From NCBI GenBank assembly GCA_050952125.1, contig JBMNKK010000003.1, positions 7,952 through 71,951 on the forward strand: a DNA stretch of 64,000 nucleotides. The letters run 5' to 3'. The number at the start of each line of letters is the position of its first letter. Positions within the stretch are counted from its first letter, which is position 1. Under the pieces are notes generated by a model. It searched no databases. It saw only the letters and a list, made by a program, of their open reading frames with translations, and was not told the DNA's origin. Positions 18,634-42,496 of the stretch are shown one piece after another. The translations under genes and the position numbers were made by a program. This stretch comes from Bacillota bacterium. GTDB taxonomy: Bacteria; Bacillota; Sulfobacillia; Fermentithermobacillales; Fermentithermobacillaceae.

Positions 18634-20616
18634 TTGACGGAAATCGGAGGAACGGGGGATGTCTCTGTGGGTAAAGGCATAGCCGAGAAAATCCTGTCAA
18701 CTCACCTTGTGAGTGAAAGCTCGGACGGCAAAGACATAGTCCTTCACGTTGATAGCACACTGATCCACGATATGTCCGGTCCCCTTGCACTCATTGGCTT
18801 TGATGCTATGGGGATTGACGATATACAGGTCGATCTGCCGGTCGCATTCATCGATCACAACCTGGTTGGGATGGACTTCAGGAGCCCTGATGATCACCTG
18901 TTCGTGACCTCGGCAGCTAAGAAATACGGGATGATGCTCTCTTCGGCGGGGAACGGCGTCTGCCACAGCGTCTACTATCACCGCCTGGGCAGGCCGGGGA
19001 CGATCCTGGTTGGGGCGGATAGCCACAGCGCGACTGCCGGTGCCTTAGGCATGCTGGGGATCGGCCTCGGAGGCCTTGATGTCTCAGCGATCATGGGCGG
19101 CGAAGATCTCACGATCGCCAGGCCTCGCATAGTCAATGTCAACCTCACCGGCAGCCTTCGACCGGGTTCCTCCGCCAAAGACGTAGCCCTCGCCTTGCTG
19201 GGGCGCCTGGGAGTGAAGGGGTGCGTCGGGGCGATAGTGGAGTACACCGGCCCCGGCGTGAAGACGCTCTCTGTCCACGAGAGAGCCACCATAGCCAATA
19301 TGGGAGCGGAGATGGGCGCTACTACCTCAGTCTTCCCCTCGGACGATGTCGTGTACCGGTTCCTGAAGGCCCAGTCCCGAGAAGCGGATTTCGTCGAGAT
19401 CCTTCCCGAGCGCGACGCTGAATACAGCCGGACGCTCACGCTTGCCCTCGACTCCGTGAGGCCGATGGTGGCCGTTCCGCCCATGCCGGACCGGGCGGTT
19501 CCCGTCGATGAAGCAGGTGAGATTCCGGTCAATCAGGTTTACATCGGGAGCTGCGTGAACGGGTCCTACGTCGATATCGCGCGCGCGGCGCTAGTCCTGC
19601 ACGGCAGGCGTGTTCATCCTGACGTCACGCTCCTGGTTTCTCCGGGCAACCGGCAGGTGTTTCAGATGCTGTTGCGCGACGGTCACATCGCTACTTTGGT
19701 GGAGGCCGGAGCCCGTATCCTTGAGTGTGGGTGCGGTCCTTGCATTGGGCTCAGCCAGGCGCCGGCTTCCGGGAGCGTTACTGTGAGGACCACCAACAGG
19801 AACTATCCCGGGCGTTCCGGCACAAAGGATGCCGGCATCTACCTTACAGGCACCGAAACCGCGGCTGCGACGGCGGTGCTTGGATACTTGGCATCCGCGG
19901 ACAAGTTGATGGACGTGGCGCTGCTGGACACGGTTCGCGACCCAGAGGTCTACCCGGTTGACGACGCCCGGATCTATCGCTATGACCTGGAGCGGATTCC
20001 GACTCCGCTGCGTTGGGGCCCGAACCTCAAGCCCATGCCGTTGAAGGAGCTCCTCGAGACCGAGTGCTCGATGAGGGTGGTGCTTAAGGTTGGGGACGAT
20101 ACGACCACCGACGACATCCTTCCTCCGGGGCCTGAGGTGCTGGGCCTGCGTCCGAATATCCCCGAGCTTTCCAAGTACCTCTTCAGCCACATAGACCCGG
20201 GGTTTTACTCCAGGGCAAGGGAATACGGAAGCAGCGTTATCGTTGGCGGCGAGAACTACGGCCAGGGTTCCAGCCGCGAGCACGCGGCCATCGGCCCCAT
20301 GTATCTGGGCGTGAAGGCCGTGCTGGTGAAGTCTATCGCGAGGATCCACAGGAGCAACCTTATCAACTACGGCATAATGCCGCTCATCTTCGACGATCCG
20401 GGAGACTACGACCGGGTATCTCAAGGAGATCTGTTGGAGATGACGGACATCCCTCAGCAATTGGGACGCGACCAGGTAGTGATCCGCAACCGGACCACCG
20501 GGCGCGAGATAGTCGCCCGGGCTCACCTCTCGCCTAAGGAGCTGGAACTGGTCAAGGTGGGCGGATTGTTCCGCTACATCCGGAACAAACGGGAGGGGGC
20601 TGCCGGTAAGAGATGA
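18634..20616 (+). CDS. Aconitase-family hydratase (fused LeuC-like and LeuD-like domains, about 650 aa), paralogue 1. The likely true start is GTG 18667, by alignment with paralogue 2.
   Basis: Fe-S ligands (SHSATAG...; GSCVNGSY; ECGCGPCIG), a swivel-domain C-terminus and ENYGQGSSREHAA. Confidence 0.85.
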   Translation: MTEIGGTGDVSVGKGIAEKILSTHLVSESSDGKDIVLHVDSTLIHDMSGPLALIGFDAMGIDDIQVDLPVAFIDHNLVGMDFRSPDDHLFVTSAAKKYGMMLSSAGNGVCHSVYYHRLGRPGTILVGADSHSATAGALGMLGIGLGGLDVSAIMGGEDLTIARPRIVNVNLTGSLRPGSSAKDVALALLGRLGVKGCVGAIVEYTGPGVKTLSVHERATIANMGAEMGATTSVFPSDDVVYRFLKAQSREADFVEILPERDAEYSRTLTLALDSVRPMVAVPPMPDRAVPVDEAGEIPVNQVYIGSCVNGSYVDIARAALVLHGRRVHPDVTLLVSPGNRQVFQMLLRDGHIATLVEAGARILECGCGPCIGLSQAPASGSVTVRTTNRNYPGRSGTKDAGIYLTGTETAAATAVLGYLASADKLMDVALLDTVRDPEVYPVDDARIYRYDLERIPTPLRWGPNLKPMPLKELLETECSMRVVLKVGDDTTTDDILPPGPEVLGLRPNIPELSKYLFSHIDPGFYSRAREYGSSVIVGGENYGQGSSREHAAIGPMYLGVKAVLVKSIARIHRSNLINYGIMPLIFDDPGDYDRVSQGDLLEMTDIPQQLGRDQVVIRNRTTGREIVARAHLSPKELELVKVGGLFRYIRNKREGAAGKR

Positions 20617-22541
20617 ACCTGACGGAGAAGATCATCGCAGCCCATTTAGTTGACGGCTCGATGGAACCGGGTGCGGAGGTCGCGCTGAAGATAGATCAGA
20701 CGCTTACTCAAGACGCTCTCGGAACAGTGGCTTACCTGGCCTTTGAAACCATGGGCATCTCGCGCGTCAGGACGCGCCGCTCCGTGAGCTATATAGACCA
20801 CAACATGTTGTGTGTGGACAACAAGAACCCTGACGACCATGCCTACCTCCTCTCAGTCGCGAGGAAATACGGGATATACCTGTCCAGAGCCGGCAACGGC
20901 ATATGCCACTCTATCCACTGCGGCCGTTTTGCAGTCCCCGGCGAGACGCTGGCCGGGGGAGACAGCCATACTCCCTCATGCGGAGCGGTTGGGATGCTCG
21001 GTATCGGCGTTGGCGGGATGGATGTCGCTGCAGCAATGGCAGGGGAACCCCTGGTGATCCGCATGCCGGAGGTGGTGAACATCCGCCTGACCGGTGAGTT
21101 TCGGCCGGGGGTGAGCGCCAAGGACTTGGCGCTTACCATAGTCTCGACGCTTACGGTGAAGGGCGGCAACAACACTGTGCTGGAGTACAGCGGACCGGCA
21201 CTCCGGAACCTCTCAGTCCCGGAACGCTTTACAGTCGCGAATATGGGGGCCGAAACCGGCGCCACGAGTTCCATCTTCCCGGCAGATGAGCAAGTATATC
21301 GGTTCTTTCGGGCCCAGAATAGGGAGCACGACTATCGTCGCCTAGCCCCCGATGACGGCGCGTGTTATGGCCGTACGCTGGAGTTCGATTTGGCAGATAT
21401 TGAACCGGTCGTGGCCAGACCCTACCAGCCCGACAACGTGTGCCCGGTGAAGGATCTGGGGACTGTCAAGGTCGATCAAGTATTCATCGGGAGCTGCACT
21501 AACAGCTCCTATGCGGATCTCAAGACCGCGGCGGCTGTCCTGGACGGACACGTGGTTCCGGCGCACGTGAGCCTCGTGATTTCTCCAGGGACACTGCAAA
21601 ACTACCGGATGCTCGCGCGAGATGGGATACTTGACGTCTTCCTCCGCGCCGGGGCACGTATCCTTGAGTGCGGGTGCGGTCCGTGCGTGGGGATGGGGCA
21701 GGCCCCCATGACAGGCGGCGTGTCTGTGAGGACATCCAACCGTAACTTCAGAGGGCGCAGCGGCGCCGTCGATTCTCAGGTTTACCTGGCGAGTCCGGCT
21801 GTCGCGGCGGCCAGCGCTGTTGCGGGGTACATCTGCTCGGCAGATGCCGTAATAGACGTTTACAGGCTCGGCGGGATTCACGAGCCCGATGAGTATCCCG
21901 CGGACGACAACATGATCGTAGCTCCTGCTCCGGACGGGAGTTCTGTCGAGATAGTCCGCGGGCCAAACATCAAGCCTGTTCCGCTAGGTACTCCGATACC
22001 TGACACGCTATCGTGCAGCGTGGCCATCAAGGTTGGGGACAACGTATCAACCGATGAGATCGCTCCAACCGGCGCGGAGATCGGAGCCCTTAGGTCCAAC
22101 ATTCCCGCGTCCGCCAAGACGGTGTTCGCGAGGATCGATCCGAACTTCCATTCTAGGGCACTCTCGTACAAGAACAGCGTTATCGTCGCCGGAGAGAACT
22201 ACGGCCAAGGCTCAAGCCGGGAGCACGCGGCTCTGTTGCCGCAGTTTCTCGGAGTGAAGGTTGTCTTGGCGAAGTCCTTCTCGCGGATCCATCGGACCAA
22301 TCTCATAAACTGCGGGATACTCCCGCTGGTGTTTAAGTGTCCGGCAGACCTGGAGCATGTCGAACAGGGCGATCACCTGATAGTCCGCAGTGTTCTTGAG
22401 GGCATAGAGAGCGGATCGTTCCGCCTGGAAAATGCAACCCAGGGGAGAACCATCGACGCTGTGGGTGACTTCACTGCGAGAGAAAGAAGGCTCCTATTAG
22501 CAGGCGGCCTGCTGAATGCCATCAGGGGGAAGGCCGGCTGA
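20613..22541 (+). CDS. Aconitase-family hydratase (fused LeuC/LeuD-like), paralogue 2. Its start overlaps the stop of paralogue 1 (ATGA).
   Basis: Same architecture: GSCTNSSY, ECGCGPCVG and ENYGQGSSREHAA. Confidence 0.85.
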   Translation: MNLTEKIIAAHLVDGSMEPGAEVALKIDQTLTQDALGTVAYLAFETMGISRVRTRRSVSYIDHNMLCVDNKNPDDHAYLLSVARKYGIYLSRAGNGICHSIHCGRFAVPGETLAGGDSHTPSCGAVGMLGIGVGGMDVAAAMAGEPLVIRMPEVVNIRLTGEFRPGVSAKDLALTIVSTLTVKGGNNTVLEYSGPALRNLSVPERFTVANMGAETGATSSIFPADEQVYRFFRAQNREHDYRRLAPDDGACYGRTLEFDLADIEPVVARPYQPDNVCPVKDLGTVKVDQVFIGSCTNSSYADLKTAAAVLDGHVVPAHVSLVISPGTLQNYRMLARDGILDVFLRAGARILECGCGPCVGMGQAPMTGGVSVRTSNRNFRGRSGAVDSQVYLASPAVAAASAVAGYICSADAVIDVYRLGGIHEPDEYPADDNMIVAPAPDGSSVEIVRGPNIKPVPLGTPIPDTLSCSVAIKVGDNVSTDEIAPTGAEIGALRSNIPASAKTVFARIDPNFHSRALSYKNSVIVAGENYGQGSSREHAALLPQFLGVKVVLAKSFSRIHRTNLINCGILPLVFKCPADLEHVEQGDHLIVRSVLEGIESGSFRLENATQGRTIDAVGDFTARERRLLLAGGLLNAIRGKAG

Positions 22542-22580
22542 GGGGTGGGTTTAGCTGAAGGGTGGGGCGCTGACGCCCGG

Positions 22581-22624
22581 GCCGGGGGATGCCACCGCGG
22601 AGTGGTGAGCCGGGGGATGCCACC
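22581..22624. repeat. Direct repeat GCCGGGGGATGCCACC x2 (spacing 28 bp).
   Basis: Seen in sequence. Confidence 0.7.
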
Positions 22625-22649
22625 TTGATGCGGCGGTTTGGGCGCGGTA

Positions 22650-22755
22650 ACCAAGTGCCCAGCGTATCCGGCCAAACTTGCGGTGGATGTCCCGGATTTG
22701 TGTACGTGGCGACCAAGTGACCAGCATATCCGCCCAAACTGTCGTGGATGTCCCC
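22650..22755. repeat. Two copies of a roughly 44-bp unit (ACCAAGTGMCCAGCRTATCCGSCCAAACTKKCGTGGATGTCCC) separated by 18 bp.
   Basis: Seen in sequence. Confidence 0.7.
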
Positions 22756-23046
22756 ACCGGTGCATAGATCAGGGCAGGACATCCCCGCTGGTGCATATTT
22801 CCCGGGGAACCTTTCCGTCGGTGCATATTTCCCGCGAAACATCCCCACGGGCGCACACGTCCCAGCGAAACATCCCCACGGGTGCATACGTCCCGCAAAA
22901 CGCCCTCATGGGTGCAGACGCCGCGTGGATATACCCGCGAGTGCGCACGCCGCGTGGCCACCCTCGCCGGTGAACGGGCCGTGCGAATACCCCTCCGGCG
23001 CACAAAGCCCGCGGAACACTCCCACTGGCGGGCTTGCGATATCCGA
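22750..23046. repeat. About 10 contiguous degenerate copies of a roughly 30-bp unit (core ...CCCC-N3-GGTGCAYAYGTCCCGCGAA...). No spacers, so not CRISPR-like.
   Basis: Seen in sequence. The period is 29-31 bp with a conserved GTGCA core; the overlapping six-frame ORFs here show protein-level periodicity and are artefacts of the repeat. Confidence 0.7.
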
Positions 23047-23150
23047 TGTACAAAGGTGAGTGGGGAAGGGGCGCGCAGAGCGGAGTTCAGGGGAGAGAGA
23101 AGTGTAACCTATGCTGGGCAGTCAACCCGTGTTTGAGCTGTTTGAGTGGC

Positions 23151-23249
23151 GCGTCACTGCCTGCCAACCGGTGTTTTGGTGAGGCGCCACTGTCTGCCAA
23201 CCGGCGTTTCGGTGATGTGCCACTGTCTGCCAACCGGTGTTTGGGTCAC
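23151..23249. repeat. Three tandem 33-bp direct repeats (GYGYCACTGYCTGCCAACCGGYGTTTBGGTSAN) located 115-215 bp upstream of the XRE-family gene.
   Basis: Seen in sequence. Each unit contains the near-palindrome CCAACCGGTGTTTGG. Confidence 0.75.
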
Positions 23250-23364
23250 GCGCATGTTCTTTTCAACTGATGCTCGGGCTGGCCGCAACCGGAAGTTGCT
23301 AGGATGCCGGAAAGGCTTGTGCTAGTTTCGGAGAGAAATCACCCGGCATTAGGAGGTTACTCAC

Positions 23365-24243
23365 ATGATTAATATGGAGAGAACTGGGGCGAGGATCTCG
23401 GGGCTTCGTAAGGCTCGTGGCATGACTCAAGCCGAGTTGGCGGCTAGACTGATGGTGTCTCCTCAGGCTGTCTCCAAGTGGGAGACCGGGCAGTCGCTTC
23501 CCGATTCAGGGCAGCTTCTTGCGATATCTGAGTTATTCGGAGTGACCATCAACAGCATTCTGACGGGCGAGGTGCAGGTTGGAGAGCCCGTTCAAGCTCC
23601 AGCCCCAACCACTCCTCCGCGTTCCGATGCACCTTCCGATTCATCTTTCAATCCATCTTCCGATTCATCCTCCCCTGGAGATGAGGAGAGGACTGATGAG
23701 TCGGCCTCTGAATCCTCAACGCTCCGGACGATCATCGGCTTGGCGCCCTTCATTGATAGTGACACCCTCGGACAGCTGCTCGAGGACTGCGATTGGAGCG
23801 GCGCTACCGTCGGCCACCTGGAATCGGTGGCTGCGTTCCTATCCAGCGATGTGGTCGATCGGCTGCTGGATCGAGTACCTCATCCGTCTGCGTCCGAAGT
23901 CTTCAAATTGGCGCCCTTCCTTGGGGCGTCCAAGCTTTCGTCGCTGGTGGAGGGTATGGAAGAGGAGATCACGCTGGAGCAGCTACGGCGAGTTGCCGCA
24001 TTCCTTGTTCCTGAAGTGTGTTCGCGTCTATTCGAGAGACTACTGAATGAGCCCGGCGATCACAGTTTTGAGGCGTTGGCATCCTTCGCACCCTTCATTA
24101 CCACTGAAGCATTGGAGGCCTTGATTCGCGCCTTCCCGCCGCCCAACCTTGAGGCTCTTAGGAGAGTGGCTCCCTTTCTTGATGAAGAGGAAGTCGGTCG
24201 CTTGCTTCGCGGGCTGCTGAAGCGGGATACGGATAGAAGATAG
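23365..24243 (+). CDS. XRE-family (Cro/C1-type HTH) DNA-binding protein with a low-complexity Pro/Ser linker and six C-terminal tandem repeats of about 27 aa (consensus L-R-R-V-A-P/A-F-L-x7-L-L).
   Basis: N-terminal HTH_3 motif (LRKARGMTQAELAARLMVSPQAVSKWETGQSLP). Internal repeats seen directly (LAPFIDSD..., VAAFLSSD..., LAPFLGAS..., VAAFLVPE..., APFITTE..., VAPFLDEE...). Confidence 0.7.
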   Translation: MINMERTGARISGLRKARGMTQAELAARLMVSPQAVSKWETGQSLPDSGQLLAISELFGVTINSILTGEVQVGEPVQAPAPTTPPRSDAPSDSSFNPSSDSSSPGDEERTDESASESSTLRTIIGLAPFIDSDTLGQLLEDCDWSGATVGHLESVAAFLSSDVVDRLLDRVPHPSASEVFKLAPFLGASKLSSLVEGMEEEITLEQLRRVAAFLVPEVCSRLFERLLNEPGDHSFEALASFAPFITTEALEALIRAFPPPNLEALRRVAPFLDEEEVGRLLRGLLKRDTDRR

Positions 24244-24451
24244 CAGATAGCAGTGTACAGCCTGCTCTAGCCGATGCAAGCAGGTTCGGGCCTTTGCGAA
24301 TGAGCCGAAATGCGTGCACGGATGCACAGGTTATCGAAACCCCCTCATTAGCCATGGCTACGGAAGATCCTCGGCGGCGACCTTGCGAGGGTTAGTCCAT
24401 GCAGAAGCTTCCAACGGCAGCGCGACACTTGGCAAAGCCACATGGAATATG

Positions 24452-25312
24452 GTATATTTTGGAATAATGGTGGAGGTGGATGTCGTAGATTGGATGACAG
24501 ATCTGGTTGAGAGAGAGCTATCCCTTGACAGCGGACTCTCGCCTTCCGAGAAAGGTCTTTACATAGCGATAAAGACTCTTCGCCCTAATTCGCTTGTCGA
24601 ACTGGCTCGCCATGCGGGCCTCTCGCATTCATCGGTTTCACGGGCGTGTGCCGGCCTCGCGAGCAGAGGGTGGGTCAGGATTGAGGTGTCTAGCCGGGGA
24701 AAATGTGTGTCGGTTGCGGTTCCAGAAGTTGTGCAGGCAAGGCAGGCTGAACTGCTCAGAGAGATCTACTCCATGCAGCCGTACAAGGGTGAGTTCCTGC
24801 TCAAGGTATTGTTGGATGCATTTGTGCTCAGCCGCAAGTATGTGGAGAACGCCAGGCCTAGGTGGCTGATAAACCCTACCACAGGCGAATCGATGGAGGT
24901 AGATCGCCTGTACCTGCCGGAAGATGATGACCCTTTTGACTGCGGTAACGGTGGATTCGGCGACCCTCGCACGGCTACTGGGAAAGGCAACTCGCGCATG
25001 GCTAGCGGGGAAGGCGACTCCTACGGCTTCGAGTTTCACGGCCCACAGCACTTTGGACCTACAAAGGCCTATCCTGATGTTGAGGAGTTCAGGAAGACAC
25101 AGGCCAGGGATCTGATGAAGAAGGCGATATGCGCCGACAACGGAGTTAGGCTGGTGGTGGTCACCTACAAGGAGCTATCGCCGAAGGGGATTTTGAAGCG
25201 TATTCCGAAGACACTTGCTACGTGCCAGACGGCTGACCTTCGCGGCAGGTATCTGACTACGGTAGGCGAGCTATGCGCCAATTACCGAGCCAATGCCCGA
25301 GACCTTTGGTAG
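24452..25312 (+). CDS. Winged-helix (MarR/IclR-like HTH) protein with a C-terminal DUF559 / Vsr-like (PD-(D/E)xK endonuclease fold) domain. The ORF track begins it at 24314; the start is uncertain.
   Basis: HTH: VELARHAGLSHSSVSRACAGLASRGWV. C-terminus: FEFHGPQHF...RDLMKKAICADNGVRLVVV, which resembles the DUF559 motif E-[FV]-D-G-x-x-H...R-D-x(6)-L-x3-G-[WV]-x-V-x-R. Confidence 0.45.
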   Translation, partial: VYFGIMVEVDVVDWMTDLVERELSLDSGLSPSEKGLYIAIKTLRPNSLVELARHAGLSHSSVSRACAGLASRGWVRIEVSSRGKCVSVAVPEVVQARQAELLREIYSMQPYKGEFLLKVLLDAFVLSRKYVENARPRWLINPTTGESMEVDRLYLPEDDDPFDCGNGGFGDPRTATGKGNSRMASGEGDSYGFEFHGPQHFGPTKAYPDVEEFRKTQARDLMKKAICADNGVRLVVVTYKELSPKGILKRIPKTLATCQTADLRGRYLTTVGELCANYRANARDLW

Positions 25313-28759: not shown

Positions 28760-29147
28760 GACAGACTATCAGTTCGAGTTTTTCCGACAGTTACGTCTAT
28801 TGTCTCCGGCGGGCAATGTGCTATGCTTGTCTTGGTCAGTGACTGACTTACAAACTCCGAATCTGCAGGTCCTAAGGCGACAGGCTATGGACTGCAGGCG
28901 GTAGGGTTATGTTGGAAACGACATGATCTCCCATTGTGGAAAGGAGTAACATAGGCTTCGATACAGAACACGCTCAGTAGGACGAGCTGTCTGTCCATTT
29001 GCGTTCCGCAAATCGGTGAGCAGGCAGGCAACCCTTGACCTCTACTGAGTTTGCTTTGATTTGCGCCTACACCGCCTTGAACTCCAATCCACATAGGAAC
29101 CGTGACGCTAGAGCCATGGAAGAACCAGATGTGGGGAGGAAGAACCG

Positions 29148-42315: not shown

Positions 42316-42496
42316 GTTGAACTGTGGCAGCGTGCTCTAGGCACGCCAACAATGAAGCAGAAGCCATCCGCTTCTCACCTTACGGCTCTTTGAGCCGGTA
42401 AGGTTCACAGATAGAGGTCTATCGCTTAATTTGGCGACTTCTGTGGGCGGGTGGTTCACCCGCCCTTTAATATTGCGGAGGGCAGAGAGGAGGTAG

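Follow-up and report, generated by a model that had tools for sequence, protein, structure and literature searches.

Gene and domain architecture of the regulator

The stretch of DNA analyzed here, referred to as the window, comprises 64,000 nucleotides (64 kb, GC content about 58%) from a Bacillota bacterium of the family Fermentithermobacillaceae (assembly GCA_050952125.1, contig JBMNKK010000003.1, positions 7,952 to 71,951 of the forward strand). It holds a gene for a predicted DNA-binding regulator of the XRE family, named the XRE-LAPF regulator after a motif in its C-terminal repeats, and this gene is preceded by a 33-bp tandem array and a series of putative operators. The open reading frame (ORF) at 23365-24243 of the plus strand is a genuine gene for a Cro/C1-type regulator carrying a helical-repeat domain without a database name. 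It encodes 292 amino acids (aa), begins with ATG and has the sequence AGGAGG 8 nt 5' of the start; a protein identical at 100% is present in JGI and Logan metagenomes, and relatives at 35-68% identity begin with MINM or MIDM at the same start position. The gene and its parts are the following (pLDDT, predicted local distance difference test score; TRF, Tandem Repeats Finder):

23365-24243, plus strand: XRE-LAPF regulator gene (ORF listing; stop codon at 24241-24243)
23365-23574, plus strand: Cro/C1-type helix-turn-helix (HTH), residues 1-70, with the recognition-helix motif SPQAVSKWETGQ (HTH_3 match, pLDDT, Foldseek)
23575-23700, plus strand: acidic Pro/Ser/Asp/Glu-rich disordered linker, residues 71-112 (pLDDT, composition)
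23622-23673: 12-bp microsatellite TTCCGATCCATC, 4.3 copies, within the linker-coding part (TRF)
23701-24240, plus strand: alpha-solenoid of six 27-31-aa 'LAPF' repeats, residues 113-292 (AlphaFold2, repeat register)

The N-terminal domain belongs to the HTH_3 family (PF01381), as residues 14-62 were matched in Pfam with an E-value of 1.3e-16 and 60.8 bits, above the curated cut-off of 23. In the AlphaFold2 model, for which a 24-sequence family alignment was used as input, this domain had a pLDDT of 94-98 and was composed of five helices (residues 4-17, 22-29, 33-40, 48-58, and 62-67), i.e., a predicted lambda-repressor-like fold. Its closest solved relatives were the P22 C2 and 434 repressors: P22 C2 superposed with a root-mean-square deviation (rmsd) of 1.0 Å and a template modelling (TM) score of 0.88-0.91 in Foldseek, and was also the top PDB sequence in the profile search (E 8e-12). 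Matches from PADLOC and NCBIfam (RmrA, RstR, and antitoxin models) were confined to the HTH. Residues Q34, A35, V36, S37, W39, E40, and G42 of the recognition helix were invariant in the family alignment, which is consistent with a single conserved operator.

The linker (residues 71-112) consists to 69% of P, S, T, D, and E, has an isoelectric point (pI) of 4.05, and fell below a pLDDT of 50 at residues 72-100 and 105-111. Its Ser/Asp/Pro low-complexity tract is generated by the 12-bp microsatellite, and the linker differs in both length and sequence between homologues. The remaining 180 residues were modelled with a pLDDT of about 96 in the full-length protein, and of 92.8 (predicted TM score, pTM, 0.79) when the domain was modelled by itself, in which case twelve helices were predicted to form six helix pairs stacked as an alpha-solenoid. 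The repeat register, set by a regular expression, gave repeat starts at residues 123, 152, 179, 207, 238, and 265 (periods of 29, 27, 28, 31, and 27 aa), and in each repeat the core L-x-x-(L/V)-A-(P/A)-F-(L/I) precedes a second amphipathic helix.

In library and PDB profile searches, residues 113-292 of the window protein matched nothing in Pfam, NCBIfam or the PDB, none of the 14 family members scanned had a Pfam family on the solenoid, and a solenoid-only Foldseek search against the PDB returned no match at E ≤ 1e-3. Sub-threshold matches to TPR_ATM, HEAT_ECM29, and MgtE_N were inconsistent and were rejected. The solenoid is acidic throughout the family, with a pI of about 4.7 and a net charge of -6 to -21 in 14 members, which argues against a solenoid of the nucleic-acid-binding kind (TALE, PUF, AlkD).

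A family of regulators sharing the LAPF repeat

Full-length homologues with the same architecture were found from 68% identity (in a Bacillota metagenome-assembled genome, MAG) down to about 25%, in Paenibacillus, Bacillus, Priestia, Lysinibacillus, Sutcliffiella, Virgibacillus, Alicyclobacillus, and many Clostridia MAGs. Family members hold up to 8 strictly matching repeats, the commonest period being 29 aa. When the solenoid alone was used as a profile, 2,048 clusters at 50% identity were retrieved (1,004 at E ≤ 1e-10), and an N-terminal XRE HTH was present in 131 of the 150 best clusters. Apart from fragments, the remainder of these 150 comprised one BlaR1-type M56 protein that ends in nine LAPF repeats of 31 aa, and about 10 giant STAND NTPases (NB-ARC, AAA_16/NPHP3_N), whose C-terminal arm is formed by LAP(H/Y)L repeats measuring from 30 to 36 aa or more. 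The occurrence of such repeats in proteins of another kind suggests that the LAPF repeat may be a reusable interaction or sensor module. The repeat arms of P0127, P0160, P0164, and P0200, taken from these M56 and STAND matches and made of 31-32-aa LAP(F/H/Y)(L/M) units, had no Pfam coverage.

A preliminary description, made from the sequence alone, had proposed an XRE regulator of the Cro/C1 type with six C-terminal repeats of a type its author did not recognize, and named disordered low-complexity sequence lacking homologues as the outcome that would speak against it. The HTH and the six repeats (of 27-31 aa) were borne out, the repeat is indeed absent from Pfam, NCBIfam, and the PDB, and both the structure prediction and the homologue search that it had suggested returned the opposite of that outcome, namely a confidently predicted alpha-solenoid and a large family carrying the same repeat. 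In the full-text literature, no paper was found on an XRE regulator with the LAPF repeat.

A conserved palindrome upstream of the regulator gene

The region between the upstream repeats and the start codon contains the following features, the promoter being discussed further below:

23123-23135, no strand: outermost partial copy CAACCCGTGTTTG, differing from the palindrome at one position and placed 42 bp before the first full copy
23139-23253, no strand: 33-bp tandem array, 3.5 copies (TRF, 81% matches, no indels)
23264-23276, no strand: putative operator O2, CAACTGATGCTCG, left half-site conserved and right half-site degenerate (alignment with relatives)
23286-23298, no strand: putative proximal operator O1, CAACCGGAAGTTG, the sole exact CAAC-N5-GTTG in the 64-kb window, conserved in relatives
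23296-23356, plus strand: inferred promoter and leader (conserved blocks in relatives)

Strong comparative support was obtained for the 13-bp palindrome CAAC-N5-GTTG, and not the 33-bp unit, as the probable true operator. Three relatives of the regulator (P0002, 68% identity; P0003, 56%; P0004, 47%) are found in unrelated gene neighborhoods, and their upstream regions align with that of the window over about 150 nt. O1 lies 79 nt 5' of the ATG, outside the three 33-bp repeats, and the related loci L001, L003, and L004 carry its counterpart, the invariant block CAAC-N5-GTTGCTAG, at -77 to -88; in relatives a perfect CAAC-N5-GTTG directly abuts CTAG. O2 is located 22 bp upstream of O1 and aligns with TCAAC-N5-GTTGA-type sites placed 22-23 bp from O1 in the same three loci, the form shared across the aligned loci being TCAAC-N5-GnTnG. 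A third site, O3, occurs 31-33 bp beyond O2 in the window, L001, and L003.

The palindrome was then counted in 37 more distant loci from Bacilli and Clostridia, comparing the region from -160 to -50 with sequence elsewhere. Exact copies of CAAC-N5-GTTG numbered 23 in 4,070 nt inside this region and 12 in 198,654 nt elsewhere, a 94-fold enrichment (Poisson P about 3e-37), and at least one site with no more than one mismatch was present between -160 and -50 in 34 of the 37 loci. Across the family the consensus extends to aTTCAAC-N5-GTTGAwa; proximal sites are concentrated between -88 and -96 relative to the start codon, and inter-site spacings cluster at 22-26 and 31-34 bp, which correspond to two and three helical turns. 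In the 64-kb window itself there was no further exact site, and the remaining one-mismatch sites were intragenic or had poor half-sites.

Two observations in other loci concern the same kind of site. In locus L040, a shorter XRE gene (1541-2151, 167 aa, SPQAVSKWEN recognition helix) stands just 5' of the family member, and its own start is preceded at about 107 nt by an exact CAAC-N5-GTTG, so the operator may belong to a wider 'QAVSKWE' HTH subfamily. In Bacilli relatives (L007, L008, L010-L012, L015, L017, L019, L023, and L024) a second conserved palindrome, ACAGnGCGCnCTGT, separates the -10-like element from the ribosome-binding site and lies about 30-45 nt 5' of the start codon; it is absent in the lineage of the window and could serve this or another regulator as an additional operator.

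Origin of the 33-bp array

A repeat search recovered three copies at exactly 33-nt spacing, and with the partial copy counted by TRF the array comprises 3.5 copies placed 112-226 nt before the ATG. With up to 3 mismatches allowed, the core CTGCCAACCGGTGTTT occurs four times in the window, where 0.45 occurrences are expected, and all four lie in this region; the exact form CCAACCGGTGTTTGG occurs in the third copy only, copy 1 having an extra T and copy 2 two substitutions. Every unit retains the invariant CAAC half-site and has a degenerate right half, so that the O3-type sites read CAAC-N5-TTTT (23165-23177), CAAC-N5-TTTC (23198-23210), and CAAC-N5-TTTG (23231-23243). The third of these units, CAACCGGTGTTTG at 23231-23243, aligns at the O3 position of L001 and L003, and no tandem repeat was found in related loci. 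On these two grounds the array is best described as a lineage-specific, in-phase tandem amplification of the distal operator O3. The period of 33 bp matches the distance of 31-33 bp that separated O3 from O2 in the ancestral arrangement.

The centers of all sites fall at about 23129, 23171, 23204, 23237, 23270, and 23292, giving spacings of 42, 33, 33, 33, and 22 bp. With the exception of the outermost 42 bp these are close to whole helical turns, which would place the sites concerned on roughly one face of the DNA. Each of the five strain-level contigs covering the region (from genomes that are nearly identical) contained the 3.5 copies, and between strains the 823-bp spacer upstream of the gene differed by only two single-nucleotide polymorphisms (22908 and 23160) and by the copy number of an unrelated 28-bp unit. 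Two assemblies (L088 and L092) begin within the 33-bp array, 190 nt before the gene, and we interpret these contig starts as places where the repeat interrupted the assembly.

This spacer is full of other tandem repeats (22560-23040), listed below:

22581-22624: 28-bp duplication
About 22640-22760: 61-bp unit, two copies
22760-23030: decayed 30-bp unit GGTGCATACGTCCCGCGAAACATCCCCACG, about 9 copies

The 28-bp unit (22581-22608) varies in copy number among near-identical strains, with a spacer of 795 vs. 823 bp (L087, L089, and L091 compared with L090). Taken together, the unrelated repeats and this variation indicate that the spacer is prone to duplication. A common origin of the 30-bp and 33-bp units was considered and rejected, as the score of their alignment was no better than that of shuffled sequence.

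Against this background, autoregulation could proceed via O1, O2, and a single O3, the 33-bp array being the product of neutral replication slippage with no regulatory role. The absence of the array from related loci, the degenerate right half-sites (two of the three full copies deviate at two positions), and the company of 28-, 61-, and 30-bp repeats in a spacer of variable length all agree with such an origin; the invariant CAAC half-site kept in every unit, a period that matches the ancestral O3-O2 spacing with sites roughly in helical phase, and the fixation of the array in five strain-level contigs, albeit of nearly identical genomes, speak against it. We give this combination of a working O1-O2-O3 set and an inert array somewhat less than an even chance, while the narrower question of whether the amplified units are functional or arose by neutral slippage in a duplication-prone spacer appears about evenly balanced.

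The upstream DNA thus departs in part from the preliminary description, which had reported three 33-bp repeats at 115-215 bp before the start, each with a near-palindrome, read them as an operator array, and joined them with the repeat island further upstream in one self-contained regulatory module. The 33-nt spacing and the palindromic core were recovered, with the corrections that the array extends over 3.5 copies at 112-226 nt and that its copies differ in detail. The operator idea gained strong comparative support, but the probable core is CAAC-N5-GTTG and the best site, O1, lies outside the repeats. The repeat island did not hold as part of a module: it is unrelated to the 33-bp unit and was not found in related loci.

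Putative promoter and probable mode of regulation

Upstream of the gene, a -35-like hexamer TTGCTA (23296-23301) overlapping the right half of O1 is followed by a TGTGCTAG(T/G)TT block (23318-23328) and the Shine-Dalgarno sequence AGGAGG (23351-23356). The arrangement recurs in relatives: a GTTGCTAGGA...TGTG(C/T/A)TAG(T/G)TTC block is conserved in four related loci, and Bacilli relatives have GTTGATAG-N15/16-(A/G)TG(C/T)TA, in which the right half-site merges into TTGATA. In general terms, GTTGATAG or GTTGCTAG is followed 17-18 nt on by a conserved TG(C/T)TA block, the equivalents in the window being TTGCTA and TGTGCTAG. From this conservation we infer an operator-overlapping -35 element and a weak, TG-extended -10 element.

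We consider it fairly probable that the protein is a stand-alone XRE/Cro-C1 factor controlling transcription from its own promoter via CAAC-N5-GTTG, assisted by the auxiliary O2 and O3 sites and by contacts between solenoids. Autoregulation is the most likely mechanism, and probably takes the form of repression, which is favored because the O1 half-site and the -35 element share bases (TTG). An HTH dimer would bind the 13-bp palindrome, and occupancy of O1 would compete with RNA polymerase and result in negative autoregulation; O2 and the O3-type sites would act as auxiliary operators, increasing local occupancy and enabling multiple dimers to bind cooperatively, and the flexible linker of about 40 residues may let solenoid contacts bridge adjacent dimers. 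The solenoid most likely provides dimerization or higher-order contacts and/or a surface on which a protein or small ligand would bind and so modulate DNA binding, a role suggested by its acidity, by similar repeats at the sensor positions of STAND and M56 proteins, and by analogy with RRNPP and cI-type regulators.

Several points weigh against this reading. No conserved neighbor, ligand or target besides the regulator gene was found in the loci and the window. Two of the three full array copies have 2 mismatches in the right half, and the array, being absent in related loci and embedded in a spacer with unrelated tandem repeats, could be neutral slippage. The role proposed for the solenoid draws on analogy and charge. 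A scan for consensus sigma-70 promoters called no canonical promoter upstream of the regulator gene, hence the assignment of the -35 and -10 elements and the sign of regulation are tentative. Finally, the center of O1 near -40 also fits class II activators and lambda cI at PRM.

The last two points bear on the possibility that the regulator activates its own promoter in a class II or lambda-PRM-like manner. O1 would be centered about 40 nt upstream of the inferred transcription start, the -10-like element is weak (TGCTAG, TAGTTT), and the lack of a called sigma-70 promoter is what activator dependence would lead one to expect. Yet the right half-site shares its TTG with a fairly good -35 element (TTGATA in Bacilli, TTGCTA in the window), which implies competition with sigma region 4, and small XRE regulators with promoter-overlapping sites are mostly repressors. 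Activation is accordingly held to be unlikely, and negative autoregulation remains the preferred reading.

Genomic context

Metabolic genes flank the regulator in the window: directly upstream are two aconitase-family genes in succession that overlap each other (18634-22541, 660 and 642 aa), NicX-like and aldehyde dehydrogenase genes lie downstream, and the regulator looks like it is flanked by a catabolic cluster. The gene immediately following it (24383-25312, plus strand) encodes a protein of 309 aa with a weak TrmB/MarR-like winged helix and an uncharacterized C-terminal half that contains the motif FEFHGPQHF; it had no NCBIfam match and is not conserved beside the regulator in related loci. 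Clustering of the ORFs from 39 loci revealed no universal conserved neighbor, and the genes that follow the regulator in L003, L006, L001, and the window bear no relation to one another.

A divergent htpG gene is shared only by a clade of seven Clostridia MAGs (L026, L029, L032, L035, L039, L042, and L044), in which CAAC/CTAC-N5-GTTG occurs in the shared htpG (Hsp90) intergenic region. This linkage may be a hint of a regulon, or only shared synteny.

The HTH of the regulator resembles those of phage repressors, and its matches to RmrA, RstR, and antitoxin models invite the question of whether it belongs to a prophage, a plasmid or a toxin-antitoxin system as its repressor. A structured or small RNA encoded by the upstream repeats was considered as well. 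A tblastn search with the solenoid gave no match in 50,697 phage and 72,556 plasmid records, the flanking genes are metabolic, no partner toxin gene was found, and the defence-system match in PADLOC was limited to the HTH. As for RNA, Rfam had no match in the array region, and the folding z-scores of the array (-0.31 and +0.78 for the two strands) were no better than those of shuffled sequence. We therefore regard an RNA or mobile-element explanation as extremely unlikely.

Elsewhere in the window, two RNA elements scored above the Rfam gathering threshold, a Moco (molybdenum cofactor) riboswitch at 28843-28962 (64 bits) and a Firmicutes-type ribosomal protein L20 leader at 42349-42477 (61 bits).

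Implications

With these results, a large group of Bacillota proteins annotated only as 'helix-turn-helix domain-containing proteins' gains an architecture, consisting of an HTH, a disordered linker, and a solenoid of 29-aa LAPF repeats, and also a candidate cognate operator with the sequence TTCAAC-N5-GTTGAA, located some 90 nt 5' of the start codon. The operator permits regulon prediction in complete genomes of cultivable relatives (Paenibacillus, Heyndrickxia, Niallia), the LAPF repeat could be registered as a new domain family, and the 33-bp array would represent a natural case of an operator amplified in phase via tandem duplication.

A more far-reaching proposal is that the LAPF solenoid constitutes an unnamed, reusable signal-sensing module of Bacillota, carried by more than 1,000 XRE regulators in which a peptide, protein or metabolite would switch operator binding (i.e., a non-TPR counterpart of RRNPP receptors), and recruited as the sensor arm of STAND and BlaR1-type proteins. 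In our judgment this is improbable. If true, the TTCAAC-N5-GTTGAA box would mark an unmapped regulon that may include the divergent htpG in one Clostridia clade.

Comparison with known systems

Solenoids of the HEAT, ARM, PUF, and PPR types are likewise built of stacked helix-turn-helix pairs, and the solenoid-only Foldseek search gave weak matches to a Toxoplasma mitoribosomal repeat protein (TMq 0.49), Pumilio (0.48), and the HEAT protein PP2A-A (0.41-0.43). Nevertheless, no profile match or close structural match to a named helical-repeat family (HEAT, ARM, TPR, PPR, PUF, mTERF, Sel1) was found, and the LAPF repeat differs from these solenoids in its signature L-x-x-L-A-P-F-L, in having no sequence-family match, and in its acidity, unlike that of RNA- or DNA-binding solenoids. 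The solenoid profile also matched LAP(F/H/Y)(L/M) repeats of 31-32 aa in the C-terminal arms of STAND proteins (NB-ARC, AAA_16) and in the C-terminal domain of an M56 protein, but these proteins are without an HTH, and their repeats are longer and have extra conserved positions.

The RRNPP quorum-sensing receptors (PlcR, ComR, Rgg, PrgX) share with the regulator their occurrence in Bacillota, an N-terminal XRE HTH, and all-helical C-terminal repeats, and PlcR, ComR, Rgg2, and PrgX were the top Foldseek matches of the full-length model (E 3e-4 to 1e-2). If the regulator were such a receptor, the repeat domain would bind an imported peptide that switches DNA binding. However, these matches did not superpose (TM 0.20-0.27, rmsd 14-20 Å), and no RRNPP protein was among the 50 matches listed for the solenoid-only query. 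No TPR family was detected in the window protein or in 14 domain sequences, the repeats measure 27-31 aa instead of 34, and the long disordered linker of 40 residues is atypical. Likewise, neither a conserved neighbor nor an adjacent small ORF that could be the cognate peptide gene was found, although very short ORFs were not systematically searched. The likeness is thus treated as an analogy of architecture, and membership in the RRNPP group as very unlikely.

The phage repressors P22 C2, 434 cI, and lambda cI provide a parallel for the predicted interaction with DNA. Common to both are the five-helix HTH_3 fold and, if the putative sites of the regulator are taken as operators, a palindromic operator with half-sites one helical turn apart, and several operators at nearly whole-turn distances upstream of the regulator's own gene, one of them at or over the -35 element. 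In contrast to these repressors, the XRE-LAPF regulator is chromosomal with no prophage context and has the putative operator CAAC-N5-GTTG, and its C-terminus is a 180-residue acidic alpha-solenoid in place of the LexA/S24-like or small dimerization domain. It represents an ordinary class of regulators whose repeat domain is undescribed in Pfam, NCBIfam, and the PDB, and it overturns nothing that is established for XRE regulators.

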